A DNA stretch of 64,000 bases from a virus. Lineage: Duplodnaviria > Heunggongvirae > Uroviricota > Caudoviricetes. Below, in pieces: positions 395 through 61,344 of the stretch. Both the position numbers and the translations under genes were made by a program. The stretch lies in IMG/VR virus record IMGVR_UViG_3300017747_005082, positions 73,618 through 137,617 of that record, one strand, 5' to 3'. The notes beneath the pieces are model-generated. The model worked only from the letters and a program-made list of their open reading frames with translations. It was not told the origin of the DNA and made no database searches. Numbering within the stretch: the first letter of the stretch is position 1; each line of letters starts with the position of its first letter.

Positions 395-408
395 TGTAAA
401 TATATGAA
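395..408 (-). promoter_or_regulatory. conserved promoter-like motif (coding strand TTCATATATTTACA)
   Basis: + strand tgtaaatatatgaa, 17 nt upstream of the 19..378 ATG. Confidence 0.5.
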
Positions 409-519
409 AATATTTTTAATAATCAAGTACCTTATTAAGGTCTCTGTTTATCACATTTATCTAAACTATCATCTAATATTTTTCTAATAAATAATGATTC
501 TTCAGTTGATTCCTGTTGT

Positions 520-840
520 TTATTTATTTCTGTTATTTTCATTATATATTAAATTTGCTTGTTTTATACCTTCTTCTTCAAAAGATGTTCTACTATTAAA
601 ATTATTTGATATATCTTGTCTTGTTATTGTTGATTTAAGACAATTTAATAAATTACCAAAATATTGTTTTGATGCCCTTTCATAATCAATTTCAATTATT
701 AATCCAATTTCATCTAACCATTGAATAATATATGCCGTTTGGATAAATTTAGGTATATCATCAAACATCACCCTATATGGAGCTAAATCTTGTTTATCTA
801 ACCAATTTAGAAAATCTATTTTAGCTTTATTAGTTAACAT
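520..840 (-). CDS. hypothetical protein (106 aa)
   Basis: ORF track; promoter-like motif 860-873 upstream. Confidence 0.5.
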   Translation of the reverse strand: MLTNKAKIDFLNWLDKQDLAPYRVMFDDIPKFIQTAYIIQWLDEIGLIIEIDYERASKQYFGNLLNCLKSTITRQDISNNFNSRTSFEEEGIKQANLIYNENNRNK

Positions 841-859
841 AATTATTTATTAATTATAA

Positions 860-873
860 TGTAAATATATGAA
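860..873 (-). promoter_or_regulatory. conserved promoter-like motif
   Basis: tgtaaatatatgaa upstream of 520..840. Confidence 0.5.
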
Positions 874-901
874 TTAAAGATTAATAATCCAATACCTAAA
901 T

Positions 902-1468
902 TTATCCTTCAAATTCATAACCATATAATTCTTTAAATTGAATTTCAATATCTGAATCGAGTTTATCTTCTATCTCTTCGTTTTCATCAAGAAATTCTCT
1001 CGTATAACCTCTTTTTACCATTTCATTTATTTTTAGATGATTGAATAATTTCCCATTTTCTGTTAAATAATTATCTTCCAACAATTTTAATCCTTCTAGC
1101 AATCCGATTTCTAATGCTTTTTCATAGGTAGAATACCCACTCCAAGTAGTAACAGCTAAATTCACATAAACTTCATAATATTTCTTTATATTATTGTAAG
1201 GTAAAACATTTACATCTATATTGTGAATCTCTCTTAACCATTTTTGAAGTAATGATTGTGTTGGAGTATCAATAATTTCTGTTAACTCACTTCCCCAATG
1301 AAGTGTTTCTATATCATAAACTGTATTTAAAGACCATTCTCCATCTCCTATTCTTCCATAATTATAATACCCTGAGTATTTATAAAAATCTTCTGAATCT
1401 TCATTAAATTTAAATCCTTTTTCTTTAGCTAATTTAGCTGTTTCGAATGTTATTAGTTGTTCTTTCAT
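902..1468 (-). CDS. MKEQ mosaic-family protein, copy 1 (188 aa); paralog of 56534..56923
   Basis: Shares N-terminal MKEQLI.FETAKLAKEKGF, PTQSLLQKW(L/I)RE(I/V)HNI and YE(K/E)ALE.GLLE blocks with 56534..56923, with near-identical DNA patches. Confidence 0.6.
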   Translation of the reverse strand: MKEQLITFETAKLAKEKGFKFNEDSEDFYKYSGYYNYGRIGDGEWSLNTVYDIETLHWGSELTEIIDTPTQSLLQKWLREIHNIDVNVLPYNNIKKYYEVYVNLAVTTWSGYSTYEKALEIGLLEGLKLLEDNYLTENGKLFNHLKINEMVKRGYTREFLDENEEIEDKLDSDIEIQFKELYGYEFEG

Positions 1469-1471
1469 AAC

Positions 1472-1916: not shown

Positions 1917-1930
1917 TGTAAATATATGAA
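1917..1930 (-). promoter_or_regulatory. conserved promoter-like motif
   Basis: tgtaaatatatgaa 26 nt upstream of the 1472..1891 ATG. Confidence 0.5.
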
Positions 1931-1957
1931 AGTAATCTTAGAAATCAAATTCCAAAA

Positions 1958-2711: not shown

Positions 2712-2725
2712 TGTAAATATACGAA
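2712..2725 (-). promoter_or_regulatory. conserved promoter-like motif
   Basis: tgtaaatatacgaa upstream of 2470..2694. Confidence 0.5.
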
Positions 2726-2735
2726 AAACAATTTA

Positions 2736-3101
2736 TTAGTCTACTACCTTAGTATAATGTCCTATCCTTTTCCTTATTTGATCTTCCAATACAACTTCCA
2801 CTACAATTTCTGTATTAGTTGTTTTATAAAAACCAAATTCCATTTCATTATAATAAACAATATATTTAAATTCATTTTCAAATACATCATCTAGTGTTAA
2901 AACATAAATATTATCAAATAATTCTAAAGAAATATTATGTTTAGTTACTACTAATGGTGTATGAAGATATACTGAGATAAAATCTCCCTGTAACCATTTT
3001 GGTGTTTCTTGTATAATTTCTGTTTTTGATTGATGATGGAACTCTTCTGTTTCACAACTTATCAAAAACAAAGTTAATAACAATAGTTGAAATATTTTCA
3101 T
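2736..3101 (-). CDS. putative lipoprotein (121 aa)
   Basis: Signal peptide ending LFLISC (lipobox-like Cys). Confidence 0.45.
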   Translation of the reverse strand: MKIFQLLLLTLFLISCETEEFHHQSKTEIIQETPKWLQGDFISVYLHTPLVVTKHNISLELFDNIYVLTLDDVFENEFKYIVYYNEMEFGFYKTTNTEIVVEVVLEDQIRKRIGHYTKVVD

Positions 3102-3373: not shown

Positions 3374-3865
3374 TTAATTCAGTTTAAATCCAATTTTAAT
3401 TTCCCCAGACCATTGTATTTTAGGTTTTGCACCGGAGAATATAAAGTCTTCTCTCCAATCTCCACTTCCTCTTACTCCTATAATTACAACATCTCCCCAT
3501 TGAAAATCAATTCCTGCTTCTACCCCAGCTCCAGGGTATTTTTCATCACCTCTCCAAATAAATCCTAATTTCCCTCCAGCATAATATCTCCATTCATCAA
3601 AGGTACCATAATTTAGACTTACTCCCATTCCGGTCATCCAATCAGTATATCCACCCTTTAATTTATCAAAATTTCTTATACCTGAATGGATATAAAACCA
3701 ATAACACTGATATTCAATTTCAACTCCTATATTCACTCCTTCTTCTTTAATAGAAGAAAAAGGGTCTGAAATTATATTAAAATTAGCTCTTTCAGTGTCT
3801 CCAAATTTAATTTGTGCTGTGCTACTTACTGTAGTTAATAAAATAGCAAATAGTAGTTTTTTCAT
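3374..3865 (-). CDS. secreted/outer-membrane beta-barrel-like protein; true start probably the internal Met (MKKLLFAILLTTVSSTAQ)
   Basis: Bacteroidetes-type signal peptide; alternating aromatic/Gly-rich strands; C-terminal ...GFKLN; promoter motif 3900-3913 sits inside the longer track ORF 3374..3928, supporting the shorter start. Confidence 0.45.
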   Translation of the reverse strand: MKKLLFAILLTTVSSTAQIKFGDTERANFNIISDPFSSIKEEGVNIGVEIEYQCYWFYIHSGIRNFDKLKGGYTDWMTGMGVSLNYGTFDEWRYYAGGKLGFIWRGDEKYPGAGVEAGIDFQWGDVVIIGVRGSGDWREDFIFSGAKPKIQWSGEIKIGFKLN

Positions 3866-3899: not shown

Positions 3900-3913
3900 T
3901 GTAAATATATGAA
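3900..3913 (-). promoter_or_regulatory. conserved promoter-like motif
   Basis: tgtaaatatatgaa upstream of the internal Met of 3374..3928. Confidence 0.5.
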
Positions 3914-4302
3914 AAATAATTTAACCAACCAATTCCATATTTACTTTGATAATTTATATGTTGTTGAACATCCAGCAATACCTACAAATTGTTTCTTTTT
4001 AAGTTTACATTTATTACAATGATATTTAGAAACAGAACCTGAATATCCGTAATAACTATAAGTCTTTTTCCATTTATGTTTACAAAACAATATTTTGGAT
4101 ATTTTTCTTATAAAATTATACATAAATTATTCTGGTAGAATTACCTCGAGCTTCTGCTAAAATCATTCTTCTTTGTTTCATTTGGGTAATTTCCAAAGTA
4201 TCCCAATCAGTATACTCAACTTTCATCATAGTTTGAGTAAAAACTCTATAATGACCATCGATTTCTTGGATTCTAAATTTTCTTCTTAATTTTTTTAATA
4301 AT

Positions 4303-5086: not shown

Positions 5087-5100
5087 TGTAAATATACGAA
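5087..5100 (-). promoter_or_regulatory. conserved promoter-like motif
   Basis: tgtaaatatacgaa upstream of 4303..5061. Confidence 0.5.
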
Positions 5101-5353
5101 ATATTGTTTAATATATCAATTCAGATAGTAAATTATTTTAAACAAAACATTTATTTTCGAAATTTAATACCTTTATTCCAATTTTCAATTAACCAATTCA
5201 AAAGTAGAATAAGAAAATAAAATAATAAAAGTACACCAAACAATCCCAATGATAAGCTAGCACCTATTTGTAAATCTACTTCAAAATGAATTAATAAAAA
5301 CATTGTTACTAAATATACTATAGAACAAACAGATAAAATAATGTGTTTTACTT

Positions 5354-7313: not shown

Positions 7314-7327
7314 TGTAAATATACGAA
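7314..7327 (-). promoter_or_regulatory. conserved promoter-like motif
   Basis: tgtaaatatacgaa upstream of 6854..7288. Confidence 0.5.
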
Positions 7328-7622
7328 ATAATTATAATAAATATTATACCTTATTGATAAGCTATCCACCAATCCCCTTTAACAAAAATAATTTGAAATT
7401 TATCAAATTCCTCTATCCCTATAGATTTTGATTTTATAGATACATTATATAATATTAATAAAGTTGCAGTTTTATCAACAGTAATAGTATAATTATTAAA
7501 ATCTAATAATTCGATTTTGTTTTTATTTCCTTCATTTTGTGAAGCACTATTAATATATTCCTCAAATTTTTCCTCTTCAATTGAAGGGAAACTATTTTTA
7601 AACTGATTATATTCTTCTATAT

Positions 7623-8360: not shown

Positions 8361-8387
8361 AATTTTAAATTTTACCTTGTAAATATA

Positions 8388-8401
8388 CGAATTATATTTT
8401 A
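8388..8401 (-). promoter_or_regulatory. conserved promoter-like motif
   Basis: tgtaaatatacgaa upstream of 8154..8360. Confidence 0.5.
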
Positions 8402-8482
8402 TATATTATTTACCTAAATTAAAAAATGCTTGGAATGATATTTCTATCTTCCCAAGCATTAATTTATTATATTATATATTAA

Positions 8483-9613: not shown

Positions 9614-9625
9614 TATTTTTATTTT

Positions 9626-10556: not shown

Positions 10557-11640
10557 TTTATTTAATTGGTTTTATGGCTGTTTTAGCCGGTTTGTAATTT
10601 AATTTTAAAAATATTCCTGTCAAGATTACAGTCTCGAAATAATAGTGAAGTACCAAACCACTCCACACCCTATTTAATCATACCATTGATACTGTATCTG
10701 TATGATGTTTTATTACCTCTCCAATAAATAACAGATCTGTAAATCTTGTAATAATGTTATGTTTTAAATCATTAGCGGGATTAATGCCCAAGTCACATTT
10801 GAAAATACATATCCTAACTATACTTATCATTCTATTACTATTTATTTTCAAGCAGGAATATTTATATTGTTAATCAGATAATTCTTTTATTTCGAATAAA
10901 TTATGTTTTTCACTATATGGAATTGTTAATTCTCCTTTTTGATATTTTTCTATATCCTGTAAATTAAAGATTTTAGGATAAATAAAAGAAGATTTAGTAA
11001 ATTTATTTATAATAAGTATACAATACATAATATTTAATTTAATTCATATTCTTCAAAAAGTAAATAATTAACATACCCTATAGCTTCTTCTCGACTTCCA
11101 CTCCCTGTATGTTGAAGATAATCAATTATATTTTCAACTGTATTACATTCTCCAATATTTCGGGTCATTTCAAAGAAATCAGCTTCTCTATTATAAACAG
11201 CATTTATTTCTTCTTGTAGCAATTCTTTTTTAATTTTATCTAGTAAGATCATGAGGGATATTTGTGTTTTAAGTTATAAGGTAAATATATAAACTTTATC
11301 TTAAAATTCCAAATTTTTTAAGACCCTCAAATCATTTAGAAAAAACTATTTATATTAATTATATTGATGTGTTATTTCAAAATATAAGTCACCTATATAA
11401 TTTCCAACTTCATGTTCTTCTATTCCACCCCCTCTACATAAATGTTGTTTCAATTCTTCAACAGTTTCAAGATTAATAATATCGCTCATTATAACAGCTT
11501 CATTAACATTTCTTTCATGTGATGAAAATCTAAACTCTTTAGCTACTTCGTTTAGAGCTTTTAACTCTTCTACTAATAGTGTAGGTTTTAATACTTCAAT
11601 AATTATATTTCTCATAACCTTTTATTTTTTAATCTTACAT

Positions 11641-11654
11641 TGTAAATATATGAA
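11641..11654 (-). promoter_or_regulatory. conserved promoter-like motif
   Basis: tgtaaatatatgaa upstream of 11355..11615. Confidence 0.5.
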
Positions 11655-11730
11655 TTTATTTTTAATAATCCTATTCCTAAATTAAAAACGCTCAGATTTT
11701 CATCCAAGCGTTTTTATAAAAATATTAAAA

Positions 11731-12263: not shown

Positions 12264-12277
12264 TTGTAAATATACGA
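12264..12277 (-). promoter_or_regulatory. conserved promoter-like motif
   Basis: tgtaaatatacgaa upstream of 11731..12216. Confidence 0.5.
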
Positions 12278-13220
12278 ACAAATTTACTAAGAATCACTTA
12301 ATCACTCATAAAGTTTTATTAAAATTAAATTATATTGATTTTCTAAGTACTAAAAGTTTTTCGTTTGGTTTTAATTCTATATCTTTGGACTTAACAAAAG
12401 ATAAAAATGAATCTTTTATTGTTGGAAATACCCAACTTCTTAAATCATCAGGAAATTCACTACAATAATCTTTAAAAACATACTCATTATTTTTCCCAGG
12501 TCTCAAATTTCTAATACCCCCTCTTATAATATTTTTACAATCAAATGTTATTTCCTTTTCGGATGCGATGCCTAGTATTTCCATTCCAAGAAGTGAAACC
12601 GACTTATGTTTGCATATATTATTCAAACTGTCCTTATAAAACAACGCATTTCCAAAATTTGCCTTCTCAAAGCTATGTGTCTCTATTGGCATTACCACAA
12701 CAAATATATTTGGTATTATTTCTTTCATAAGATTTTATTAATTTCTTTATCTTCAAAATATTGTTTTATTAAATTATTTTTATAATTATATATTATTCCA
12801 ATATAAATAAACAAAAATCCAATATCTAAAGAAGGTGGACTCCAACTATTTGTTTTAATTAAATTAGTATTTAATACCATATAAGGTAAAAGACTTAAAC
12901 TATTAGGATTTAAATGAAATCCAAAGATAAAATGAGCTATTGTAAAAGATATATAATAATAATCTTTTTCTTTGGTTTGTTCTATAATTAGCCATTGGCT
13001 CTCAAATAATATTTTATACATTTTTATTAATATTTAATAAATATCGTCATCTGAGCTGTCACCATTAAATATAGTATAAAATACACCATATAAACAAGCT
13101 AATGTTGCTGTAATAATTATTCCTATAAACAAATAAACCCACAAATTAAAATAACTAAAAATAAATAATAATAATATAAATATTATCATTGCAATCAAAG
13201 GTTTCTTATGTTTTTCCATT

Positions 13221-15349: not shown

Positions 15350-15363
15350 TGTAAATATATGAA
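15350..15363 (-). promoter_or_regulatory. conserved promoter-like motif
   Basis: tgtaaatatatgaa upstream of 15017..15331. Confidence 0.5.
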
Positions 15364-15390
15364 TTATAATTAAATAATCCTATTCCAAAA

Positions 15391-16505: not shown

Positions 16506-16537
16506 AGTAAATATACGAAAGGCCCCTTGAGGGGCCT
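16506..16537 (-). promoter_or_regulatory. terminator-promoter cassette: hairpin AGGCCCCTTGAGGGGCCT (16520-16537) fused to motif variant agtaaatatacgaa (16506-16519)
   Basis: GC hairpin straight after the stop of 16543..16818, followed on the coding strand by TTTCGTATATTTACT upstream of 15962..16480. Confidence 0.5.
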
Positions 16538-16821
16538 ATACCTTATTCTATAATAACTAAATCTTCCTTTTTATCAATTGGTTTTACCTCTATACCAAGC
16601 CCTTCATATTTTAATAATGAATTACTTACATATCTATATAATCCAACTATATTTTTTTGATCTTTTGTTTTCTGTATAATTAATTTTTTATCAGTCTCTT
16701 TTATATCTTTTGTTTGAATAAATTCAATTATAAAATCTTGAGCTAACTTTAAATCTGAAATGTTAAACAAATGGGAGGCAATTTGTTCAAATATGCTTTT
16801 AATGGGGAATTTAGACATAGT

Positions 16822-17855: not shown

Positions 17856-17927
17856 AATCTTTGTTGTTTTAAATTTAAAATTGTTTAATGAATTATTATT
17901 GTTTATTAATTTTACTTTGTAAATATA

Positions 17928-17941
17928 CGAAATTTAAATCT
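17928..17941 (-). promoter_or_regulatory. conserved promoter-like motif
   Basis: tgtaaatatacgaa upstream of 17394..17855. Confidence 0.5.
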
Positions 17942-18035
17942 CAAATCCAAATATTTTTATAATAATCTTTTTAAAATTAAATTTTTTTAAAAATATAATT
18001 GTAAGAGCCATTATTGAGTATCTACCAACTATAGT

Positions 18036-18144: not shown

Positions 18145-18158
18145 TGTAAATATACGAA
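18145..18158 (-). promoter_or_regulatory. conserved promoter-like motif (drives the ORF-less segment)
   Basis: tgtaaatatacgaa. Confidence 0.5.
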
Positions 18159-18420
18159 TTAAAAATTAATAATCCAAATTTCTTTTTAAAAAATTTCATA
18201 AATTGGATTTACTAATTTTATTTTACTTGTTGGTATATTCCACCCAAATCCCTTTTCACAAATACCTCCACAATCATGATTCTTTTCATGTCCTTTATCC
18301 CATTTTACTGATATGTAGTTATTTTTTGTTTTATTACAGTACCATAATCACCTACATTTAAATGATTATACTCTGATATTACTTCTATACGATCTCCTGT
18401 TTTAAATTCTCCTTCCATAA

Positions 18421-20027: not shown

Positions 20028-20041
20028 TGTAAATATACGAA
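20028..20041 (-). promoter_or_regulatory. conserved promoter-like motif
   Basis: tgtaaatatacgaa upstream of 19762..19995. Confidence 0.5.
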
Positions 20042-20063
20042 CTATAATTTATAAAGAAAATTC

Positions 20064-20624
20064 CTAATATATACTATATAAAGATGTTTCTAGATTTTCT
20101 TTTTTAGATATTATTTTTAGATAACTTCCTTTTTTATATTCTTCTCTTACCACAAGATTAGCTCCACATAATATTTGAACCTGATCACCATCTATTCCTG
20201 TTACAATACCTTCATCCCCAAATTCCATTATATAATTTTCATCAAATTTTAATTTAGAAGATGTACAATGACCTCTAACTGTAGCTTGTACTCTATCACC
20301 AATATTATATCCAAATGAAGATGATGAAATAATTCCACATCCTAAAGTTTTAAGAGAAATATCTTCATCTATATTTTCATAAACTTCTAAAAATTTACCT
20401 TTTCTATTTTCGCATCTAGTAACAAATTTATTATCTTTTGTTAAAAGTATTTCAGTATAATATCCTGATACTCCAGTAATAATACCTTTTTCTCCTTCCC
20501 TCATAGGTCTTTCATGTTTAAGGGATGAATTTGTACTACCCCCAGTAACAGTGGCAAATACTTCTTGTCCTATTTTATATCCATGTGTAGATGGTGATAC
20601 CACCCCACTTCCTTTCTTATCCAT
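20064..20624 (-). CDS. YEIY-related protein with internal tandem domain duplication (...LYSIY)
   Basis: Two ~80-aa repeats (G(Y/H)(K/N)IG(Q/D)(E/R)V.ATV.G...SS.LK...); tail Y-S-I-Y. Confidence 0.5.
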   Translation of the reverse strand: MDKKGSGVVSPSTHGYKIGQEVFATVTGGSTNSSLKHERPMREGEKGIITGVSGYYTEILLTKDNKFVTRCENRKGKFLEVYENIDEDISLKTLGCGIISSSSFGYNIGDRVQATVRGHCTSSKLKFDENYIMEFGDEGIVTGIDGDQVQILCGANLVVREEYKKGSYLKIISKKENLETSLYSIY

Positions 20625-22989: not shown

Positions 22990-23003
22990 TGTAAATATAC
23001 GAA
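22990..23003 (-). promoter_or_regulatory. conserved promoter-like motif
   Basis: tgtaaatatacgaa upstream of 22591..22971. Confidence 0.5.
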
Positions 23004-23019
23004 TTATAATTTATAAATC

Positions 23020-23352
23020 CTAATAAATATCATAAAGTATATTATTTCCATTATATATCATTATTTCTTCAAGTGTAGCTTCTCTAAAATGATCAAGATG
23101 AGGAAACCAATAATAGTTATTAATATCTGATTTACATAAATTATGAAATTCATAATAAAAATGACCAGGATAAACTTCTGATGGTTGTTTAAGTGTAATT
23201 TTACATATACAATTTTTGAAAGAATTCATACTATGATTGAAATTCTGATTACTAGAAGTTATAACAACTATATCTCCGATATTATATTCTTTTTTCATAA
23301 CTTTTTTATTATTAAGACACATAAATAAGGCCAAATTAAAATTAAGACACAT
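23020..23352 (-). CDS. YEIY-family small protein (...ILYDIY)
   Basis: C-terminal tail. Confidence 0.5.
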   Translation of the reverse strand: MCLNFNLALFMCLNNKKVMKKEYNIGDIVVITSSNQNFNHSMNSFKNCICKITLKQPSEVYPGHFYYEFHNLCKSDINNYYWFPHLDHFREATLEEIMIYNGNNILYDIY

Positions 23353-24443: not shown

Positions 24444-24475
24444 CGTAAATATACGAAAGGCCTCTTAAGAGGCCT
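24444..24475 (-). promoter_or_regulatory. terminator-promoter cassette: motif cgtaaatatacgaa (24444-24457) fused to hairpin AGGCCTCTTAAGAGGCCT (24458-24475)
   Basis: Near-identical cassettes at 35617-35647 and 61313-61344. Confidence 0.55.
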
Positions 24476-24593
24476 AATAATTTTAATAAATCGTAATTTT
24501 TGGTTTTTGTGAAACATTTTTAAGTTTCAACCATTCCATTAAGTTTTGAACTTTGCTTTTGTTACTTGTTTTGCTCATTTTATTTTATATTAA

Positions 24594-26723: not shown

Positions 26724-26737
26724 TGTAAATATATGAA
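26724..26737 (-). promoter_or_regulatory. conserved promoter-like motif
   Basis: tgtaaatatatgaa upstream of 26481..26705. Confidence 0.5.
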
Positions 26738-26744
26738 TTTTAAA

Positions 26745-27278
26745 TTATAAATCCAAATAAGATTTGATAATTTTTACTTGTTTTCTTAGTTTTGTTTCGT
26801 ATTTTTTTGTTATCGCATATCTTCTTTTGGAACAGTTAACAAAATTATTGAGGAGTTTTGTTAATGAAGAACAGGATAAATAAGAGGATGCTATTATAAA
26901 ATAATAGGCTTCAACCCCCTCTTTTATTGAATTATATTTTACGTAACCTTTTTTACTATTAATAGAATATGGATTATTTTTCTTTTTTCCTACTCCTTCA
27001 TTTCCTAATGATGTTTCAATTATTGCTTGTGATATTGCCAATTCATAAGGAACAATAATATCAAGTGAATCATAAACCTTTATTGCATTATCATACAAAT
27101 CTTCTGCTGTTATTTGTGATTTTGGATAATGTTCTAATATTCTTGCAGAATTATAATAATAGGTACTATCAATTTGACTATAAGTTTTAAATGAACAAAA
27201 CAATATAAATAATAACAATATTTTTCTCATATTAATAAATTTCGTAAATATTCTCTTTTTGGGAAACCAATCCCTCAT
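26745..27278 (-). CDS. secreted glucosaminidase-like peptidoglycan hydrolase (177 aa)
   Basis: Signal peptide MRKILLLFILFCSFKTYSQ; ISQAIIETSLGNEG resembles the FlgJ/glucosaminidase AQAALESGWG motif. Confidence 0.4.
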   Translation of the reverse strand: MRDWFPKKRIFTKFINMRKILLLFILFCSFKTYSQIDSTYYYNSARILEHYPKSQITAEDLYDNAIKVYDSLDIIVPYELAISQAIIETSLGNEGVGKKKNNPYSINSKKGYVKYNSIKEGVEAYYFIIASSYLSCSSLTKLLNNFVNCSKRRYAITKKYETKLRKQVKIIKSYLDL

Positions 27279-29749: not shown

Positions 29750-29763
29750 AGTAAATATACGAA
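29750..29763 (-). promoter_or_regulatory. conserved promoter-like motif (variant agtaaatatacgaa)
   Basis: Upstream of 29481..29729. Confidence 0.45.
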
Positions 29764-30390
29764 AAAATATTTATTCATCAAAGCTTTTTATATAATCTTG
29801 CAATTCTTGTCTTTCTTTATCTAGCTGTTGTTGTACTTTTTTAGGTATTTTAGGTAAATCTGTTGTTTTACCTTTAAGAAAAGTTTTATCAATATTCCAA
29901 TCTTTACAATCAAGTATATCTTTATCTAAAATACCTCTAAATACCATAAAATCTTCAATAATATTACCTTCTTCCTCTTCCTCGAATATAAATTGGGGAG
30001 AGTGAAAAAACTGTATTATTTCTTCTTTAGAAGCCATTACTCCTGGAGTATTAGCTAATAATTTAGCAATTTCTAATTTAGTCATGTAAAAGGGCATTCT
30101 TTTGAAACTTCATCTATAGAATTATATCCTAACATATAATGAAATTGTGATTTATAAATTTTATATGATTTCCTATATTTAGTAATAGTTTTTGAACCAG
30201 TATACTCTTGTCCATATACTCTTAGAAAAACATAATAATAATGAATATATTTATAATCAGGTAATTTTAAATTCCATATAAAATATAATAGTGTTAAAAA
30301 TATATAATATGGTAAAATTATTATAAAAATTATAGTTGTGTAAAGTAATTTTAAAAATGGTATAATAATATATTTCATTTTATTTTTATT

Positions 30391-30401
30391 TAATATACGA
30401 A
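30391..30401 (-). promoter_or_regulatory. promoter-like motif variant (taatatacgaa)
   Basis: Between terminator 30411-30440 and the 30082..30378 ATG. Confidence 0.35.
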
Positions 30402-30410
30402 AAATATTTA

Positions 30411-30440
30411 GATAAAAAAAGACCTCAATTGAGGTCCTTT
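30411..30440 (-). terminator. rho-independent terminator after the thioredoxin gene
   Basis: Minus strand AAAAGGACCTC-AATT-GAGGTCTTTTTTT: 6-7 bp GC stem, 4-nt loop, U7 tail. Confidence 0.7.
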
Positions 30441-30442
30441 TA

Positions 30443-32781: not shown

Positions 32782-33844
32782 TATTTGAAATATTTTTTAT
32801 AAGGAAAACAAATTAAACCAATAACACTTAATGTAGAAGTAATAAACCAAAGAGTAGGATATGGACTTCTAAATACCATCATATTTAAAATAACCAATAT
32901 AACTATCATTATTATAAAAATAATAATCCTTACAGCTAATTTTTTCATACTATTATAGTACTTTTAAGAATTTAGTTTCTTTAACATTTACTACAGTAAA
33001 ATCCAAATTATCACCTTCATCAGTGAACATTTTATTTACTTTAGTTTCAGCATCTAAACAAGAAATAGCATCTACTAAATATTTCTCTTTAGTAACTTGA
33101 ATTTTACCTTTGTCATTTTCTATTTTAGTGTTGACATTCACTTCATAAAATTTATTCATATTATATTTGATTTTTTAATTATTTTAAATATATGAAAAAA
33201 TATTTAAGATTCCAAATCTAAAATTTGTTTTTCTAAATCTCTAGCAGAAACTGCCAATTCATAATATTGGAAAGTACATGCCCAATCTTTTATTTCTTTA
33301 AGCATATCTAACCAATTATCAATATAAACTGACATATATTTCTTTTCTTTAGTTTGGAATGTTACTTCAAATATATCAATTGTAGCTAATTTTTTATTTT
33401 TATCTAGGTGTTTTTGTAATTCAACTAGAGTATATTCATATAATTCTTTTTTATTTGAGTTATAGTAATCTACTAGTTCATCTTCATCAAATACTTTAAT
33501 TTTTCGCATTCTTTCTTGTTTTAATTTGTGGACGATCTTCAGGGAAATGATTATAATGTTCTTCTTCTAATTGATATTGAAGGGATTCCATTAATTCTTT
33601 ATCGGCTTTAGTAATTCTAGGTTTTCTTTCTTGATTTTTGGGATTATATTTATTTTCTAATTCTTGAAGTTGTTTTATTAATCTATCAGATTTATTATAA
33701 ACGGGATCATGAATTTCCACAAATAAAGGAGATCCTTTGGAAATATTCTTATCCCAAACCCATTTATATGTTATTCCATTATGGTCTTGAAAATTTTGTG
33801 TATATGATAAAATTGGTGTAATATTATCACTAGGTCTTCCTTGT

Positions 33845-35595: not shown

Positions 35596-35616
35596 AATTC
35601 GTAATTTTACTTCCTA

Positions 35617-35647
35617 GTAAACATACGAAAGGCCTCTTAAGAGGCCT
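35617..35647 (-). promoter_or_regulatory. terminator-promoter cassette (agtaaacatacgaa + AGGCCTCTTAAGAGGCCT)
   Basis: Near-identical to 24444-24475 and 61313-61344; upstream of 35380..35595. Confidence 0.55.
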
Positions 35648-35668
35648 AATAATTTTTATAATTTATTT

Positions 35669-43928: not shown

Positions 43929-44802
43929 TATGAATTAAAAAGGTAGTATTAATTAATTCAGGATATGTTGTTCTTAACCAATCTTGCAGTTCTCCTTCTT
44001 CTTCTTCCAATAAATTGTATTCAGTATAGACATCACAACCTAATTCATCTAACCAACCTTTATCAATTTCTTCAGGTATATCACAATAGGATACTACCTT
44101 CATATTTAATATTTTTAACATATAACTTTTTTATTTAAATATACAAACTTAATTTATTAAATCCAAATAATCTAAAGAATCTATAAATCCTTCTTTACCA
44201 AACTTAGTTAATGTTGATGGATCATTTTTATATTTAATATATTCTCCTGTTGTTGGATTTTTAAATTTTTCTTTTTCTTCTTCCCTAACTTTAATGGATT
44301 TAATAGCTGCCCATTCCCAATCATCTCTACTAGTACCTAATACAAAGATAATACCTACCCCTTCTATATTTATTGTTTGTGGATACCAAACTCTTTTATC
44401 ACTATCTACTTGTTTAATATCTTTATACAACTCAGGTAAAGTTTCTTCAAAAGTTTCAAAATCAAATTCATCTAATTTCATTAAATCATTTGTTTCAAAA
44501 CCAGTAACTAAACATTTATATGATTTTAATGTTTCGTTAATAGGAGTTATATATGCGCTTTCTTCTAATCCACATAATGGAGAAAATCCTAATTCATCTT
44601 TCATTTTATTTTTTTATTAAAGGTAATATATTAATTTCTTTATATTCAAAAACTACAACTTCATAATCATCCAAACATATTATATGTTTATTATTTTTAA
44701 TAGCTTCTGAGGGGAATACATGCCATGTATATTTATTCGAATACCCAAGTGTAATAAATTCTTGGGTTTTCTTATTTCTAATTTTATATATTTTATTTCT
44801 CA

Positions 44803-52283: not shown

Positions 52284-52287
52284 AATT

Positions 52288-52318
52288 AGTAATATATAAA
52301 AGGCCTTTTACAAGGCCT
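52288..52318 (-). promoter_or_regulatory. hairpin AGGCCTTTTACAAGGCCT with an AT-rich motif variant, upstream of 52083..52283
   Basis: Same GGCCT...AGGCC hairpin type placed after the groEL stop; motif degenerate (agtaatatataaa). Confidence 0.4.
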
Positions 52319-52323
52319 AATAT

Positions 52324-53949
52324 TTAATATAATGAAGGTTGTTCTTTTTGTTCTTCTCTTTTTTCAATAACTAAATTATTTGTTGTTAAAATAGTTCCAG
52401 CTACTGAAGAAGCATTTAGTAATGCATATCTAGTTACTTTTACAGGATCTAAAATACCTTTAGTTCTCATATTAACAATAGATTCAGAAACTAAATCATA
52501 TCCATTCCAAATATCAGGTTTTTTAGTTAAATCAGATATTAATTTTTTAATATCTTCACTATCATAACCAGCATTTTCAAGAATTCTAGTAAATGGAGCA
52601 GAACAAGCATCATATACAATTTGCTGTCCTAATTTAATATCTTTATCTATTTCATTAAAAATGATTCCTTCTCTAGCATATAATAAAGCAGAACCTCCTC
52701 CAGGTAATACTCCTTCTTCTATGGCAGCACGAGTAGCATGTAATGCATCATCTACCCTATCTTTTTTCTCTTCAATTTCTACTTCAGAATTACCCCCAAT
52801 AGAAACTACAGCAACTCCTCCTACCATTCTTCCTAAACGTTCTTGAAGTTTTTCTTTCTCGAATGGAGATGATGCTTTATCAATTTGAGTTTTAATTTCC
52901 TCAGTTCTCTTTTCTATTTCTGCTGGTTCACATTCTCCATCTACTATTGTAGTATTTTCTTTAGTAATAGTTACAGTACGAGCATTACCTAAATATTTAT
53001 TCCATTCATTTGGATTTATTTTATCCAATTTCATTCCTTTTTCAGTAGATATAACTTGTCCTCCTGTTATAATTGCTAAATCTTCTAACATAGATAATCT
53101 TCTATCTCCAAAATCAGGAGCTTTGACAGCAACTGAATCAACAACTCCTCTAACTTTATTTACAATTAAAGTTGATAAAGCTTCTCCGTCAATATCCTCA
53201 GCAATAACTAATAATGATCTTTGTTCAATATTAGCTTTATTCATAACTCCAACTAAATCTTGGGCTGATGTTATTCTTCCACTATATATAAGAATTAATG
53301 GTTTTTCTAAAGTAGCTTGCATTGTATTGTTATCAGTAACAAAATATGGAGATTTATAACCTCTGTCAAACTGCATTCCTTCTACAACATCTAAACTGGT
53401 TTCTCCAAATTTAGATTTTTCAACCGAAATTATACCTTCTCTACCTACTTTATCTATAGCTGTAGAAATTAATGTTCCGATTTCAGGATCATTATTACCA
53501 GATATAGTTGCTACTTCTTGGATTTGGGAATTTTCTGTTATATCTGCTTTATTTTCTTTCAGTTTTTCAATAACTTGTTTAACAGCTAAATCAATACCTT
53601 TCTTAACAGAAACAGAATTAGATCCTTTTTCCATAACTTTGAAACCTTCTTTTATAATACTAGTAGCTAGTAATGTTGATGTCGTAGTACCATCACCTGC
53701 TTTATTATTAGTATCTTCCGATACTTTTTTAACAAGTTGTGCACCCATATCTTCAATTTGATCTTCCAATTCAATAAAACCTTTCGCTACAGAAACACCA
53801 TCCTTAGTAGTTTTAATTTTACCATATTGGTCTTTAAGCAGAACTGTTCTTCCATAGGGACCTAATGTATCAGATACTGCATTATTTAATTTCTCTATTC
53901 CTCTTAATAAACCGGCTTGTAATTTTTCTCCGTTTTCTGTTTGTGTCAT
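52324..53949 (-). CDS. groEL: chaperonin GroEL / Cpn60 (541 aa)
   Basis: Collinear GroEL blocks: TKDGVSVAK, AGDGTTTSTLLA, VVEGMQFDRGY.SPYF, AVKAPDFGDRR, GGVAVVSIGG, DALHATRAAIEEGV.PGGG, GILDPVKVTR. Confidence 0.9.
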   Translation of the reverse strand: MTQTENGEKLQAGLLRGIEKLNNAVSDTLGPYGRTVLLKDQYGKIKTTKDGVSVAKGFIELEDQIEDMGAQLVKKVSEDTNNKAGDGTTTSTLLATSIIKEGFKVMEKGSNSVSVKKGIDLAVKQVIEKLKENKADITENSQIQEVATISGNNDPEIGTLISTAIDKVGREGIISVEKSKFGETSLDVVEGMQFDRGYKSPYFVTDNNTMQATLEKPLILIYSGRITSAQDLVGVMNKANIEQRSLLVIAEDIDGEALSTLIVNKVRGVVDSVAVKAPDFGDRRLSMLEDLAIITGGQVISTEKGMKLDKINPNEWNKYLGNARTVTITKENTTIVDGECEPAEIEKRTEEIKTQIDKASSPFEKEKLQERLGRMVGGVAVVSIGGNSEVEIEEKKDRVDDALHATRAAIEEGVLPGGGSALLYAREGIIFNEIDKDIKLGQQIVYDACSAPFTRILENAGYDSEDIKKLISDLTKKPDIWNGYDLVSESIVNMRTKGILDPVKVTRYALLNASSVAGTILTTNNLVIEKREEQKEQPSLY

Positions 53950-56533: not shown

Positions 56534-56923
56534 TTATATAATTTTTAATGCTTCTAATAGTCCTGTTTCCAATGCTTCTTCGTAGGTTTTATAATAATTT
56601 TGTAAATCATATTCTTGAAAATTATTATGTTTATCAAGATATACCATTATTATAAAATAATTTGTTTTAGATGGTGAAATTAATATATTAATATTATGAA
56701 CTTCTCTTATCCATTTTTGAAGTAATGATTGTGTTGGAGCATTATAACAATCTTTTAATCTAAAAGCTGATGAAAAAATAGCTTTTTCTAAACTAAATAA
56801 ATTACCTTCAGGACTATAAACGTTTTGTTGAGATATTCTTATTTCTCCATTAGATGTTTTATCAAAAAACTCTTTTTCTTTAGCTAACTTGGCTGTTTCG
56901 AATGATATTAGTTGTTCTTTCAT
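56534..56923 (-). CDS. MKEQ mosaic-family protein, copy 4 (129 aa), inserted within the split polymerase gene
   Basis: Paralog of 902..1468: first ~50 nt and the PTQSLLQKW region near-identical at DNA level. Confidence 0.6.
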   Translation of the reverse strand: MKEQLISFETAKLAKEKEFFDKTSNGEIRISQQNVYSPEGNLFSLEKAIFSSAFRLKDCYNAPTQSLLQKWIREVHNINILISPSKTNYFIIMVYLDKHNNFQEYDLQNYYKTYEEALETGLLEALKII

Positions 56924-57591: not shown

Positions 57592-59445
57592 TTATTTTTT
57601 TAAATAGGTTTCTTCAATATGTTCATTAGCATATTTAATTGTTTCGCAAACCATTCTTTGTCCAGTACAAGTAATAGCTGATGATAATATTTTGAAACCA
57701 TCTGTAAATCTCCAAGCATTAATTGCAAATGCTCCATAAACGGCATTTAATAGAATTTTGAATGAGTGTTGTTGAGAATCATATAATTTTCCTAAAACTT
57801 CATCACCTTCTTTATAGGCAATTTCCATTTTATGTTTATATTCCTTTCTTAATTTAAACCAATCTGTTAATACTTTAGCTACTACACTTTGAGTATCTGT
57901 TCTAAATATAACCCCATTAGCAGAAATAGTCCAGTTTTTATCTTCTATATTTTTTACTATTTTACCAATGGTAGTATTATGAGTAGTAAAAGTATATGTT
58001 TCCTTATCAAGAATTTCAAATTGGATTTCTTCATTTTGGTTTTTATTCTTTAAATCTTCTAACCCCCACCAAATATTTCTAGTTGGATTATCAATTGCTA
58101 TTCTTCCTATTAAAGTTTCAATACCTAAATTTAAAGATCTAATAATTGATGGATATAGGGAAGCATAATCAAAATCACTCAACCATCTATATATTCCTGG
58201 AATAGGTTCTAATAAAAATCCTCCAGCATATGATTCTTTTTTACGAATAGTTTTAATTCCTCGTAATTTTAATTCTCCTAACGCTGTTTTTACATAAACT
58301 TCCTCTCCTTCAACAGAATGTACCTCTCCTTCAATAGTTGGAGTACCTCTTTGATGAACAACTATATCTCCTTCGTTTAATTCACGAATTTCTTTATTAA
58401 TAGTAGTAGGTTTATTATGAACTATTATTCCTTCACGTTTTAAATAAGTAAGAATAGCTCCCTCATTTAAAACTGTATTATAATAAATAGATTCATAAGA
58501 AGTATGACATAAATGTGAAATTAAAATAGTTAATTGAACAAATTGTAAGTTTTTCTCCAATTCTTCAATAATTTCAACATCACGAATATTATAATCAATA
58601 TATTTTTCAGGGTCTTCCTCAAATAATTGATCTAAATTTCCTTTATATTCAATTTTACCAAGTTTAGCATATTTAATACCAATATCATGCAATTTATATG
58701 ATGGTTCTTCTTTTGTAATATATTTTTTAGTCAACCTCATGAAATCTAAACAATTTATACCACCTATAGTGATAGGATTATCAGGATTTGCAGGTTGATT
58801 AATTACTTTTTTTATTGGAGATAATAAATTAGCTGTTTCTTCACCAAATACTTTTAAAATCCTACAATACAAATAAGGCATATCGAAATAATCACTATTC
58901 CAGCCAACAACTATAGTAGGATCTAATTCTCTCCATTTCTTTAAAAATTTAGAAATTAAATCTCTTTCACTATAACATACTATAATTTGTTTTCCTTCTT
59001 TTTGTAAATCTGTTAATTTAGATTTTCCATCAACAATAAAACATATCTTTTGTTTAGTAGTTATATCTATTAAAGCTATTGAAGTTAATTCTGCTGGAGC
59101 AGCTTGTATATAACTAGGTGTTAAAGAACCCAACAACTGAATCTCAATATCTAAATAAAGTATATTATGATATGAAGGTTGTGAATCATCTTTATAATAG
59201 AAATCTCTTAAAACTGCTATTTCTTTTTGGATATCCTTTTCAAGAATGTGGTTATCAAACCAATCATACTTTCCTTCTACTTTGGATACTCTTTTTCCAA
59301 ATAAAGTACTATACTCCCCTTCAGGATTTACTTCATAAACTGGTGGAGAATATTTAAATCTTTTCCATTTTTCAATATCATCTCTGAGGTAAATATATCC
59401 TTTATCTGGGTTCTTCCTTCTTTCAAAAAAAATTGCTTGGTACAT
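57592..59445 (-). CDS. family-B DNA polymerase, N-terminal fragment (3'-5' exonuclease + palm/fingers, 617 aa)
   Basis: Exo I YLDIEIQ, Exo II WNSDYFDMPYL, Exo III YNIRDVEII, Pol motif A DFDYASLYPSII, motif B KILLNAVYG. Confidence 0.85.
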   Translation of the reverse strand: MYQAIFFERRKNPDKGYIYLRDDIEKWKRFKYSPPVYEVNPEGEYSTLFGKRVSKVEGKYDWFDNHILEKDIQKEIAVLRDFYYKDDSQPSYHNILYLDIEIQLLGSLTPSYIQAAPAELTSIALIDITTKQKICFIVDGKSKLTDLQKEGKQIIVCYSERDLISKFLKKWRELDPTIVVGWNSDYFDMPYLYCRILKVFGEETANLLSPIKKVINQPANPDNPITIGGINCLDFMRLTKKYITKEEPSYKLHDIGIKYAKLGKIEYKGNLDQLFEEDPEKYIDYNIRDVEIIEELEKNLQFVQLTILISHLCHTSYESIYYNTVLNEGAILTYLKREGIIVHNKPTTINKEIRELNEGDIVVHQRGTPTIEGEVHSVEGEEVYVKTALGELKLRGIKTIRKKESYAGGFLLEPIPGIYRWLSDFDYASLYPSIIRSLNLGIETLIGRIAIDNPTRNIWWGLEDLKNKNQNEEIQFEILDKETYTFTTHNTTIGKIVKNIEDKNWTISANGVIFRTDTQSVVAKVLTDWFKLRKEYKHKMEIAYKEGDEVLGKLYDSQQHSFKILLNAVYGAFAINAWRFTDGFKILSSAITCTGQRMVCETIKYANEHIEETYLKK

Positions 59446-59577
59446 TATTTATTTGATTTATTTCTATTTCCTATTTGATATGAATAACCAAATAATTTTG
59501 CTATTTCTGTTGTTTTAAATAATGGTTGATGATTTGTGAAGTGGAAACATTTCTGTTGTTCTTCTAAAATAATTAAA

Positions 59578-60138
59578 TTAAAAGAAGAGCATGGAATTAT
59601 ATGGTCTATTTTTCCCATTTAAAATTTTAATTGCTTTTTCAGCACATATTCTAGTTAAACCATATCCAATATCAATACAATCTTCATGGTTATTATTTTT
59701 ACTACATATTACAAAGTTATCTTTTTGTGAAAATAACATATCATTATCATCATCTAAAATAACATAATTATCTACTTTATTTTCTTTTAACCAATATTCG
59801 ATTTCACAACCTCTTGGGATTGAATAACCCCTTATTTTAGGAGTGGGTTTTTCTAATAATTTATTATTCCAAAATCGTATACTCCCCCCCTTTTTTAAAT
59901 ATAAACTAGGAGTAGTATCAATTAATTCACCAGGTAAATTTCTATCTAACCACATAGATTTCATTTCCTCTAATCCGTTTTTTCTCCAAGAAGAAGAAAT
60001 TACAATTTTAGCTCCTGTTGAATCTATAATCCATTTTAAATTATCTTCAAAATGTTTATGAAATATTTTACCATATTTATCATGACCTTGTCCTATAACA
60101 TTCAAAACACCATCAATATCTAAAAATATTACTTTCAT
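59578..60138 (-). CDS. HAD-superfamily phosphatase (186 aa)
   Basis: N-terminal FLDIDGVLN (DxDG[T/V]) motif. Confidence 0.55.
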   Translation of the reverse strand: MKVIFLDIDGVLNVIGQGHDKYGKIFHKHFEDNLKWIIDSTGAKIVISSSWRKNGLEEMKSMWLDRNLPGELIDTTPSLYLKKGGSIRFWNNKLLEKPTPKIRGYSIPRGCEIEYWLKENKVDNYVILDDDNDMLFSQKDNFVICSKNNNHEDCIDIGYGLTRICAEKAIKILNGKNRPYNSMLFF

Positions 60139-60563
60139 ATCAATTGATTTAATAGTTTTTTAATATGTAAATTAGGAGTTATATTAGGGTTTCTTTTCTT
60201 AAAGTCTTGATAAGATTCAGTTCCTAGTATATCTTGAATAAATTCTCCTACAGCTCCGCTTCTAGAAATACCAGCACTACAATGAACAAAACATCTTTTT
60301 TTATCCTTATTTGATTTTATAAATTGATAAATTTCCTCAGCTTGTTTTTCATTCATAGGTTTATAGTTACCAATTTCATATTCTAAATCATAAAACCACC
60401 AAGTTTTATAATTATCGCAATCATTAAATAATCTATCTGGAAAATCAGGATCTAATATACTAATAAAAAATATATCATCAAACATTTCAGGACTGCTTCC
60501 TTTTTGTTTAAAAGAATCCAACATTTGTTGGAAAACATGTTTTGGAAAAATATTAATTATCAT
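60135..60563 (-). CDS. dual-specificity / tyrosine phosphatase (CX5R, 142 aa)
   Basis: VHCSAGISRSG P-loop signature. Confidence 0.7.
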   Translation of the reverse strand: MIINIFPKHVFQQMLDSFKQKGSSPEMFDDIFFISILDPDFPDRLFNDCDNYKTWWFYDLEYEIGNYKPMNEKQAEEIYQFIKSNKDKKRCFVHCSAGISRSGAVGEFIQDILGTESYQDFKKRNPNITPNLHIKKLLNQLI

Positions 60564-60615
60564 TATTTGTCATTAAGTGAATTATAAATTCAGAAGGTAA
60601 ATATATATTTTCATA

Positions 60616-61032
60616 TTAATTTTTGGTTGTATAATTAACCATTAATTTATGCCAAAATTTTTTAGGAAGATGTATATTATCAATATTAATAGCGTTTTCA
60701 AATAAAGGTGCTACTTCTTTAGGTTGTAAACCAGCTAACCCACAACCTATTTCAGTCACAAGAAATGTTAAATTTGGATTAGCTTTAGCAAATTCAATAA
60801 ATTCATCTACATAATATTGAATTTTAGGAAGTGTTAATGTTTTTGTTATAGAAGCATTTTTTGTTGGAATTCCGTATGTTTTTCCTTGGAGTCCTTTAGG
60901 TTGTCCCCAAATAGCTCCCCAAGTCAAAGCTTGACGAGCAGCTCCAGCCCCATGTCTTCCAGATTCATTAGAACCAAAAACAAAAACTTCATTATCTTTT
61001 AATATTTGTATATTATTTTCTGTTACTCTCAT
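60616..61032 (-). CDS. Rossmann-like protein of unknown function (138 aa)
   Basis: VFVFGSNESGRHGAGAARQA glycine-rich loop. Confidence 0.3.
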   Translation of the reverse strand: MRVTENNIQILKDNEVFVFGSNESGRHGAGAARQALTWGAIWGQPKGLQGKTYGIPTKNASITKTLTLPKIQYYVDEFIEFAKANPNLTFLVTEIGCGLAGLQPKEVAPLFENAINIDNIHLPKKFWHKLMVNYTTKN

Positions 61033-61312
61033 ATTAATATAAAATAACTTTGTATATCATTTCTCTCAAAAAAACCTAATTTTCTTAAATATCCGTTATT
61101 ATATACCTCAAAATATTCTGTATCTTCCATAATTTTATTATTAATCACTATTTCTTTAGTATATTTTCGATATACTTTTTTATATGATGTCCAAAAAAAT
61201 TTATATTGTATATATAATTCAGTATAATTTTCCTCTTGATTATGATAAAGTATCTTAATTTTATCTATATTATTTGTATTTAATAAAGGCATAATTTGTA
61301 ATTTTATTTATT

Positions 61313-61344
61313 AGTAAACATACGAAAGGTCTCTTAAGAGGCCT
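61313..61344 (-). promoter_or_regulatory. terminator-promoter cassette (agtaaacatacgaa + AGGTCTCTTAAGAGGCCT)
   Basis: Near-identical to 24444-24475 and 35617-35647; after the MazG-like gene and upstream of 61029..61292. Confidence 0.55.

Follow-up and report, generated by a model that had tools for sequence, protein, structure and literature searches.

Which RNA polymerase holoenzyme reads the promoters of an uncultured phage, and at what stage of infection, is the question raised by a 14-base motif repeated along a 64,000-nucleotide stretch of viral DNA (IMG/VR record IMGVR_UViG_3300017747_005082, positions 73,618 to 137,617; hereafter the window). An earlier reading made from the letters of the window, referred to here as the sequence-only reading, had described the motif as a promoter-like element delimiting transcription units and had suggested its recognition by a phage-encoded or phage-modified sigma factor or activator acting on a middle or late gene class. 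The analysis presented here indicates that the repeats are genuine, far from randomly distributed, and form a family of promoters. The phage is T4-type and immuto-like, with a probable host among the Flavobacteriia, and the copies probably represent the extended -7 box of its early promoters, to be used by the sigma-A holoenzyme of that host; this assignment is held with moderate confidence and weighed below against its rivals.

Distribution of the motif in the window

The window has a G+C content of 25% and contains 146 open reading frames (ORFs) covering 92% of its length, with essentially all genes on the minus strand; intergenic DNA makes up 9%. The exact pattern TGTAAATATAYGAA was matched 16 times, always on the plus strand, whereas no match was found in any of 100 dinucleotide-preserving shuffles, confirming the observation from which the sequence-only reading started. 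When up to 2 mismatches were allowed, 33 matches were obtained against 8.5 +/- 2.6 expected. On the coding strand the motif reads TTCRTATATTTACA. Thirteen of the 16 coordinates originally listed were exact, the copies placed at 8388, 17928 and 12264 lying in fact at 8378, 17918 and 12265. Variant copies were likewise recovered at 11280, 16506, 24444, 29750, 33183, 35616, 44134 and 61313, while the one listed at 30391 proved to be a weak match (TTCGTATATTAAAT, at 30388). A 15-nt weight matrix, derived from the sites themselves and hence partly circular, picked out 22 sites at 14 bits or more, every one of them on the minus strand, which is that of the genes; at 10 bits or more there were 27 gene-strand and 2 opposite-strand sites, mononucleotide shuffles giving 1.8.

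All 22 strong sites were intergenic, and the density of TATATTTA on the coding strand was 16-fold greater in intergenic DNA than inside genes. The claims that the motif is oriented with the genes, avoids long ORFs and acts as a promoter-like element delimiting transcription units are supported. The stated distance of 17-35 nt to a start codon was largely reproduced, with 16-34 nt separating the end of the motif from the next ATG at 21 of 24 sites, but it does not extend to the copies at 12265 (48 nt), 17918 (62 nt) and 18145 (289 nt, no ORF), which lie farther away. Twenty of the 22 strong sites fell inside the small-ORF region at 0-36 kb. Between 36 and 61 kb, where the replication and glycosyltransferase genes are located, only weak, variant, hairpin-type or degenerate copies were present, in agreement with the earlier statement that these modules largely lack the motif. 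A metagenomic contig reaching 2.1 kb past window position 1 contained three further sites.

Anatomy of the element

Twenty-four sites were aligned on the box, with the first T of TATATTTA counted as 0; in the alternative published numbering the -7 box occupies -12 to -5. The whole element is approximately 45 nt long and the motif constitutes its downstream half. The segment TTCR-TATATTTA-C (positions -4 to +8, T = 0) was invariant or nearly so, and the full box string TTCR-TATATTTA-CA corresponds to a T-n-R extension followed by the -7 element TAnnTTT. The T, A, T, T and T of this element were present at 24/24 sites, which upholds the likeness of the core to the Bacteroidetes -7 element proposed in the sequence-only reading, and the middle positions of the box were T in 24/24 and A in 22/24, with C never observed and G only twice. 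That reading was however incomplete as to the extent of the motif, having missed a second block, T(T/A)GG, 20 nt upstream of the TA and so at the -33 position of the host sigma factor. This block occupies -23 to -20 (T = 0; T-23 in 20/24, G-21 in 17/24 and G-20 in 19/24 sites) and is followed by ATT and, at -14 to -12, by TAA. Its spacing from the box is rigid (TTG-N20-TA) across an A+T-rich spacer of 16 nt, and about half of the sites have an extra GG at -27/-26, as T(T/A)AGG at approximately -27. In published numbering the conserved positions are T(T/A)GG at -33, TTC at -16 to -14, R at -13, the box T-12 A-11 T A T-8 T-7 T-6 A-5, and C-4. By the published spacing (PMC6847099) transcription would be predicted to begin 4-5 nt past the box, giving leaders of 13-31 nt; the leaders have no Shine-Dalgarno site and end in TTATG.

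The phage and its relatives

Pfam and PHROGs assignments of window proteins include the T4-type split family B DNA polymerase and clamp loader gp44/gp62, as well as GroES, GroEL, an ATP-dependent ligase, a PD-(D/E)XK nuclease and several glycosyltransferases, with no structural genes in the window. On this gene content the window is part of a T4-type phage. No close DNA relative was found among cultured phages by megablast of 16 kb, and a scan of IMG/VR with the PolB protein alone gave no confirmed relatives; these were reached through the motif in IMG/VR and subsequent protein searches. The composite GGATT-N12-TTCRTATATTTACA was present in more than 118 IMG/VR stretches, those listed all being 25-37% G+C and most of them encoding homologues of window or immuto proteins. 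Homologues of window proteins were encoded in 69 of the 122 loci examined (cited below by L number where a single locus is meant), and the window GroEL protein matched short freshwater-metagenome contigs. The relatives carry a T4-type portal and major capsid protein, and proteins of motif-bearing IMG/VR contigs compared with those of Flavobacterium phage vB_FspM_immuto were 59% (portal) and 43% (5'-3' exonuclease) identical.

Immuto is the closest cultured relative. The window and immuto have in common a one-strand gene order of GroES/EL, nuclease, glycosyltransferases and small genes, followed in immuto by structural genes. Genomes of the immuto group are 155-190 kb in length, with PolA, PolB or PolC interchangeable (PMC11348598). 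When the immuto promoter was compared with cultured phages by BLAST, only immuto itself was matched. A podovirus-like assignment of loci of the L047 and L064 types was dropped, their portal and exonuclease matching immuto and T4-type phages; also dropped was the argument that the motif is common to unrelated phage types and so host-determined, since these loci belong to the same clade.

Host phylum

The host of the window phage is most likely a member of the Bacteroidota, and within that phylum of the Flavobacteriia, because its relative infects Flavobacterium, its gene starts are A-rich and lack Shine-Dalgarno sites, and the cellular matches to the motif are in Bacteroidota. In the 146 start regions no G-rich Shine-Dalgarno peak was observed (G in 3-9/146 at -7 to -13); A was enriched at -11 to -13 (approximately 100/146) and the start context was (A/G)-T-T-ATG, with T at -1 in 95/146 and at -2 in 83/146. 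These regions agree with initiation as described for Flavobacterium, which is Shine-Dalgarno-less and dependent on A-12/A-13 (PMC6847099). Searched for in a 20-base form (TTGGATT-N12-TTCGTATATTTAC), the promoter gave only 4 matches in 185,579 species genomes (596 Gb). Three of these were in true chromosomal contigs of Bacteroidota metagenome-assembled genomes of 45-50% G+C, on which adenylosuccinate lyase, a SusC-like TonB receptor and proteins with sorting domains of the type IX secretion system (T9SS) are encoded. L121 and L123 are orthologous loci and amount to a single independent case; in both, the motif precedes by 26-38 nt a gene for a large secreted immunoglobulin-repeat, T9SS-type protein, with the start context AGTTATG again present; L122 is the third chromosomal locus with an exact 20-base match. 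The fourth match is in a 'Woesearchaeota' bin of 30.6% G+C that looks like a phage contig. Rfam gave no match on the Bacteroidota loci or on L133.

Among cultured phages, BLAST of the clade consensus matched mainly intergenic DNA of Bacteroidota phages. Bacteroides phage crAss001 has a textbook TTTG-N20-TATCTTTG before its tRNA genes, with a spacing equal to the TTG-N20-TA of the window. Two other candidates were rejected. A classical sigma-70 reading (TTGATT-N16/17-TATATT) is geometrically possible, but such sites were not enriched (191, 174 and 156, with shuffles giving 170, 170 and 155), and it is the Bacteroidota box that the invariant TTT fits. A SAR11/pelagiphage host, considered in view of low G+C content and marine abundance, was rejected in favour of Bacteroidota because of the Flavobacterium relative and the genome matches in that phylum.

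Host-type and clade-specific features

Promoters of the Bacteroidota primary sigma factor (sigma-ABfr) consist of a -33 TTTG and a -7 TAnnTTTG element (PMC6847099, PMC7366714); in F. psychrophilum three main classes of sigma-A motif vary around TAnnTTTG (PMC9723704), and in Flavobacterium johnsoniae (TAHHTTTG) the G at -5 is nearly invariant (PMC6847099). The window promoters resemble these in their invariant TA and TTT, the near absence of G from the two middle positions of the box and the A+T-rich spacer, and a TTG-type element is found 20 nt upstream of the -7 TA in all but about 5 sites. Short leaders devoid of Shine-Dalgarno sites and exact copies in Bacteroidota chromosomes are further likenesses. 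The window promoters differ in having A and then C in place of the near-invariant G-5, in the conserved TTCR before the box and in the second GG block at -27/-26, and their information content is far above that of host promoters. The A at -5 is a genuine departure from the consensus of the host.

The wider clade was assessed on 200 sites of motif-bearing loci that had not been chosen by the search pattern. At the two bases before TA these sites had C in 45% and G in 43%, and after TTT they had A in 45% against G in 24%. Orthologous promoters are kept between phages at 55-61% protein identity. Parts of the element also occur outside the clade. The unrelated Flavobacterium siphovirus 11b has TTAGG-N19-TATATTTG, in which a TTG directly precedes the box, and so shares with the window the GG at -21/-20 (T = 0), the T-n-G extension and TATATTT. 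In the temperate Flavobacterium phage 6H, also unrelated, TATATTTG occurs together with a terminator hairpin followed by TATATTTAC. Two features are peculiar to the immuto-like clade, namely a C at -14 and strict adherence to A-5 and C-4. Chryseobacterium phage MA9V-1 (OR050627, 75764-115812; 213 kb), compared by motif match only, has a repeated promoter of its own, TTTTCATATGTCGTAAAAAATGcTTAtATTTAcA, in which the -7 box ends in A or G.

Temporal class

Because the window has no structural genes, the complete immuto genome was used as a proxy for timing. The equivalent element in immuto is AGTTGC-N16-TTCN-TAT(A/C)TTTA-GGTATCAATAATTAAAAC, and the box TTG-N20-TAYHTTTAGRTA was found in 25 gene-strand copies against 2 on the opposite strand. 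Twenty-two of the 25 lie at 60-77 kb before small hypothetical genes, and apart from one copy the box is absent from the structural region. Immuto structural genes and many others are preceded, 8-25 nt upstream, by a shorter box, HTATTTATW, with no -33 element. Of its 49 gene-strand copies 39 are intergenic, in a genome of which intergenic DNA forms 6%, and the box is commonest at 110-155 kb, making it a candidate late promoter of the clade. Examples in immuto (NC_055915, L126-L129) stand at 95181, 117605, 146992 and 149171, and the core of this box, TATTTATA, gives the T4 late box TATAAATA when reverse-complemented. The canonical host-type TAHHTTTG was enriched in the intergenic DNA of neither the window (ratio 0.8) nor immuto; as a T4-type phage with no polymerase of its own must have a host-readable promoter, the motif is the only candidate for that role.

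T4 early promoters stand before clusters of small genes (Hinton 2010, PMC2988021). The window promoters are similar in being present in many copies before clusters of small non-essential ORFs, in combining all the host elements with extra conserved positions, and in leaving the replication genes probably dependent on read-through and on weaker or different promoters; the T4-type replication genes and the concentration of strong sites in the small-ORF region match the location of T4-type early promoters. They are unlike T4 early promoters in sigma family and consensus, and no counterparts of Alt, MotA or AsiA were identified. With T4 late promoters (TATAAATA, read with gp55, gp33 and the clamp) they share an A+T-rich octamer near -10, and the hairpin class of the window has AGG rather than TTG at -33. 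Most window sites nevertheless possess a -33 element and precede small early-type rather than structural genes, and the features of a gp55-type late promoter were not found. In T4 middle promoters a MotA box replaces the -35/-33 element, whereas the upstream box of the window is of the host TTG type that is also present in the unrelated phage 11b.

Hairpin-associated copies

Some copies of the element are combined with a hairpin. A repeat family of 80 nt (D4) has five copies, at 16506, 24444, 35616 and 61313 together with a degenerate one at 52284. The spacer of these class II copies is taken up by a GC-rich palindrome (AGGCCTCTTAAGAGGCCT) that runs up to the TTCG; the hairpins have folding energies of -12.5 to -14.6 kcal/mol, except that the imperfect one at 61313 has -5.5 kcal/mol. 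A classic terminator hairpin (-16 to -17.5 kcal/mol) stands upstream of at least three ordinary copies (8378, 11641 and 30388). Altogether, hairpins of -12 to -17 kcal/mol were found directly upstream of or inside 8 sites. Composites of a terminator and an early promoter (PeSLs) recur through the variable regions of T4-like phages (PMC2839356, PMC4122927). By analogy, the five GC-hairpin copies may act as combined terminator-plus-promoter cassettes. The likeness lies in a hairpin followed by an early promoter and repeated between small variable ORFs (Arbiol 2010, PMC2839356; Comeau 2014, PMC4122927), an arrangement represented here by five class II and at least three class I copies. The difference is that class II has its hairpin within the promoter spacer, directly against the -7 extension.

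Recognition of the promoters

The reading we favour, with somewhat better than even confidence, is that the motif is the extended -7 box of early promoters used by the sigma-A holoenzyme of the host. After DNA entry the host core RNA polymerase with its primary sigma factor (sigma-A, Bacteroides type) would bind these near-optimal sites, out-compete host promoters and transcribe short operons of small takeover genes, while read-through together with weaker or variant sites would serve the replication and glycosyltransferase modules. The element as read by this holoenzyme would comprise, in order, an optional terminator hairpin, T(T/A)AGG, T(T/A)GG, a 16-nt spacer, TTCR-TATATTTA-CA, the start and a leader with no Shine-Dalgarno site. 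The phage-encoded or modified sigma factor of the sequence-only reading is not favoured by the presence of a -33 TTG element at host spacing, and no sigma-like gene was found in the window. Nor does a motif more extended and invariant than a host consensus imply a phage factor, since the 'über' promoters of the T4 early class, with a near-invariant consensus beyond the host elements, are likewise extended and are read by unmodified host RNA polymerase (PMC2988021); in Bacteroides the strongest constitutive promoter is a phage promoter that acts with no phage factor (bioRxiv 10.1101/2025.03.18.644028). The proposed middle or late class is likewise at odds with the position of the sites before small-ORF clusters and with immuto, where the equivalents are in the small-gene region and structural genes have another box. 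Several observations weigh against the host sigma-A assignment. The box ends in A at -5 at 24/24 sites, a position at which 11b retains the host G, and is followed by C-4 at 22/24; about 5/24 sites lack G at -21/-20 (T = 0), the hairpin class having AGG there; and C-14 and the full TTCR-TATATTTAC are clade-specific and almost absent from cellular genomes, so that the host consensus alone is no explanation. Nearly all motif-bearing viral contigs moreover belong to one broad clade, and their spread is no proof of independence from a clade-specific factor, while a sigma factor, an activator or an injected enzyme modifying RNA polymerase could lie in the roughly two thirds of the genome outside the window.

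These points give some weight to a different possibility, that the promoters form a delayed-early or middle class read by a polymerase altered by the phage, either through an injected or early phage protein (in the manner of T4 Alt/ModA or MotA/AsiA) or through a phage-encoded sigma-like subunit, with TTC at -16 to -14, A-5 and C-4 as the discriminating contacts. We regard this as unlikely, and it retains a real share of our belief chiefly because A-5 departs from the host consensus (PMC6847099). The TTCG extension and the preference for A-5 recur at clade sites not chosen by the search pattern, viral contigs abound in the exact extended motif, which occurs only four times in the 596 Gb of cellular genomes, and injected Alt can boost early promoters in T4 (PMC2988021). 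Yet the -33 TTG-type element stands at host spacing, where T4 middle promoters would have replaced it; no other candidate early promoters were found in the intergenic DNA of the window or immuto; and a box with A-5/C-4 follows a terminator in the unrelated phage 6H and is also present in Bacteroidota chromosomes. PHROGs and Pfam scans of 50 window proteins revealed no phage sigma or activator genes and, in the window (about one third of the genome), no match to the MotA or AsiA families. T4 gp55, compared by phmmer with the window, with immuto and with all the loci, likewise gave nothing below E = 0.27. Searches of this kind easily miss regulators that are small and evolve fast. A stronger version, in which TTC at -16 to -14 with A-5/C-4 is the code by which a phage factor tells phage from host promoters, is more doubtful still. 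That factor could be an injected enzyme modifying RNA polymerase or a new sigma-binding 'appropriator'; if so, the unusual Bacteroidota sigma-ABfr would have its first system of the sigma-appropriation or Alt kind, kept across a very abundant clade of aquatic phages.

Less probable than either is that the cassettes are kept chiefly as recombination substrates or as signals at the RNA level, with the appearance of a promoter being secondary. They might, for example, be repeats of PeSL type through which small genes are shuffled, sites of RNA processing or stability, or, at the palindromes, operators bound by a dimeric regulator. Repeat families of 38-82 nt do cover the motif and its flanks at 60-100% identity, four hairpin copies have near-identical perfect palindromes between the -33 and -7 positions, and each phage has its own conserved leader, such as GGTATCAATAATTAAAAC in immuto, suggesting spread by duplication or recombination. 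Conservation nevertheless peaks at the sigma-contact positions and fades in the flanks, the spacing to -33 is rigid, and the box is kept across phages whose proteins are only 30-60% identical and whose leaders differ. Roles in recombination or at the RNA level are in any case compatible with promoter function, PeSLs being promoters too (PMC4122927).

Individual promoter sites

All sites are on the minus strand. Putative class I promoters begin with that at 395..431, which has TTG at -22 to -20 (T = 0) and TTCATATATTTACA and stands 16 nt before the ATG of gene 19-378, and that at 860..896 (TTAGG..TTGG, then TTCATATATTTACA) before gene 520-840. Further class I copies precede genes 1472-1891 (1917..1953), 2470-2694 (2712..2748, with a weak -33 element, GTAG), 3374-3865 (3900..3936), 4303-5061 (5087..5123, with TTGA at -23 to -20), 15017-15331 (15350..15386), 22591-22971 (22990..23026, with TAGG) and 26481-26705 (26724..26760). 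The copy at 17918..17954, before gene 17394-17855, is kept upstream of orthologues in loci L048 and L037, and that at 18145..18181 is followed by approximately 290 nt with no ORF. A terminator hairpin (-16.4 kcal/mol) precedes the class I promoter at 11641..11715, before gene 11355-11615, and another (-17.5 kcal/mol) the promoter at 8378..8460, before gene 8154-8360. Extended -7 boxes with only the distal GG (-27/-26) were found at 7314..7350 and 20028..20064, before genes 6854-7288 and 19762-19995. The predicted promoter at 12265..12301 lies 48 nt before gene 11731-12216, and that at 29750..29786 (TTTG, then TTCGTATATTTACT) before gene 29481-29729.

Variant promoters with TTGG at the upstream element are present at 11280..11316 (TTTATATATTTACC, TTGG at -33; gene 11034-11252), at 33183..33219 (TTCATATATTTAAA; gene 32953-33159) and, as a weak variant, at 44134..44170 (TTTGTATATTTAAA; gene 43918-44121). 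A further weak variant (TTCGTATATTAAAT) follows a terminator hairpin at 30388..30442, before gene 30082-30378. In class II, a GC hairpin (AGGCCCCTCAAGGGGCCT) abuts TTCGTATATTTACT at 16506..16545, before gene 15962-16480; hairpin AGGCCTCTTAAGAGGCCT (-13.6 kcal/mol) abuts TTCGTATATTTACG at 24444..24483, before gene 24184-24426; and hairpins abut TTCGTATGTTTACT at 35616..35655 (-12.5 kcal/mol), before gene 35380-35595, and, imperfectly formed, at 61313..61352, before gene 61029-61292. The class II-like copy at 52284..52330, a hairpin (AGGCCTTGTAAAAGGCCT, -13.1 kcal/mol) followed by TTTTATATATTACT, stands before gene 52083-52283, just downstream of GroEL.

Other features of the window

The phage has GroES (53965-54258) and GroEL (52324-53949) genes of its own; immuto and several IMG/VR relatives also have the pair, correspondingly placed. 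PolB is split into an N-terminal gene at 57592-59445 and a C-terminal gene at 55618-56523, between which lie an HNH endonuclease gene (56932-57588) and an ORF of 129 aa (56534-56923; phrog_12005). Paralogues of this ORF are located at 902-1468 and 51685-52086, with up to 91% DNA identity at their 5' ends (repeats D14 and D19), which suggests a mobile cassette.

Twenty of the 146 predicted proteins, 71-107 aa in length and encoded at 16.8-35.6 kb (16822-35595), end in the tetrapeptide YEIY; examples are 35380-35595, 28335-28634, 22317-22604, 19548-19775 and 16822-17067, and others occur in loci L016, L048, L065 and L077. Nine further window proteins end in -IY (YDIY, YQIY or xxIY). YEIY is the commonest C-terminal tetrapeptide in related IMG/VR loci (37/1380 ORFs), often as EPQYEIY or EPNYEIY, and none was found in immuto. 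The proteins form several groups unrelated by BLAST, they belong to no Pfam family, and no literature on YEIY in connection with phage was found. The YEIY codons vary synonymously and therefore selection acts on the peptide. YEIY looks like a short C-terminal tag on many early proteins of one subclade, and this putative tag may be more novel than the promoter itself.

A tRNA-like gene at 9556-9614 (minus strand) was identified by Rfam (43.8 bits) and missed by ARAGORN; its acceptor, D and T arms are intact, but 15 anticodon-arm positions are replaced by approximately 2 nt, leaving no anticodon arm. At 8932-8964 (minus strand) the DUF805b RNA motif of Rfam was matched below threshold (29.4 bits, E = 1e-5, the gathering score being 35.6), and gene 8483-8899 just downstream of it had no Pfam hit. 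Non-coding stretches of 170-730 nt, several of higher G+C content (approximately 0.3) than the DNA around them, are present at 8900-10136, 14182-14349 and 17932-18144 and at 2486-3090 of L133. Two non-coding stretches are directly downstream of full-strength motifs, at 18145 and at position 2472 of L133. The non-coding stretches may represent promoter-driven small RNAs; besides the tRNA-like gene and the weak DUF805b match, no Rfam family was found in them, and they have no mutual similarity.

Significance

No report of the window consensus was found in the literature searched, and CGTATATTTAC had no match in a relevant context. For the immuto-like T4-type phages of Flavobacteriia these data provide a first map of transcription units together with a promoter consensus; the group is common in freshwater and marine viromes to judge from the more than 118 IMG/VR stretches with the composite motif. 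The promoter geometry together with starts devoid of Shine-Dalgarno sites points to Bacteroidota and may serve as a host-phylum marker for uncultured contigs. Genetic tools for Flavobacteria, in which suitable parts are scarce, might also draw on these elements as candidate promoters of compact size and very high strength. For the sigma factor itself, the change from G to A at -5 and the TTCR extension offer testable hypotheses on promoter recognition by sigma-ABfr.

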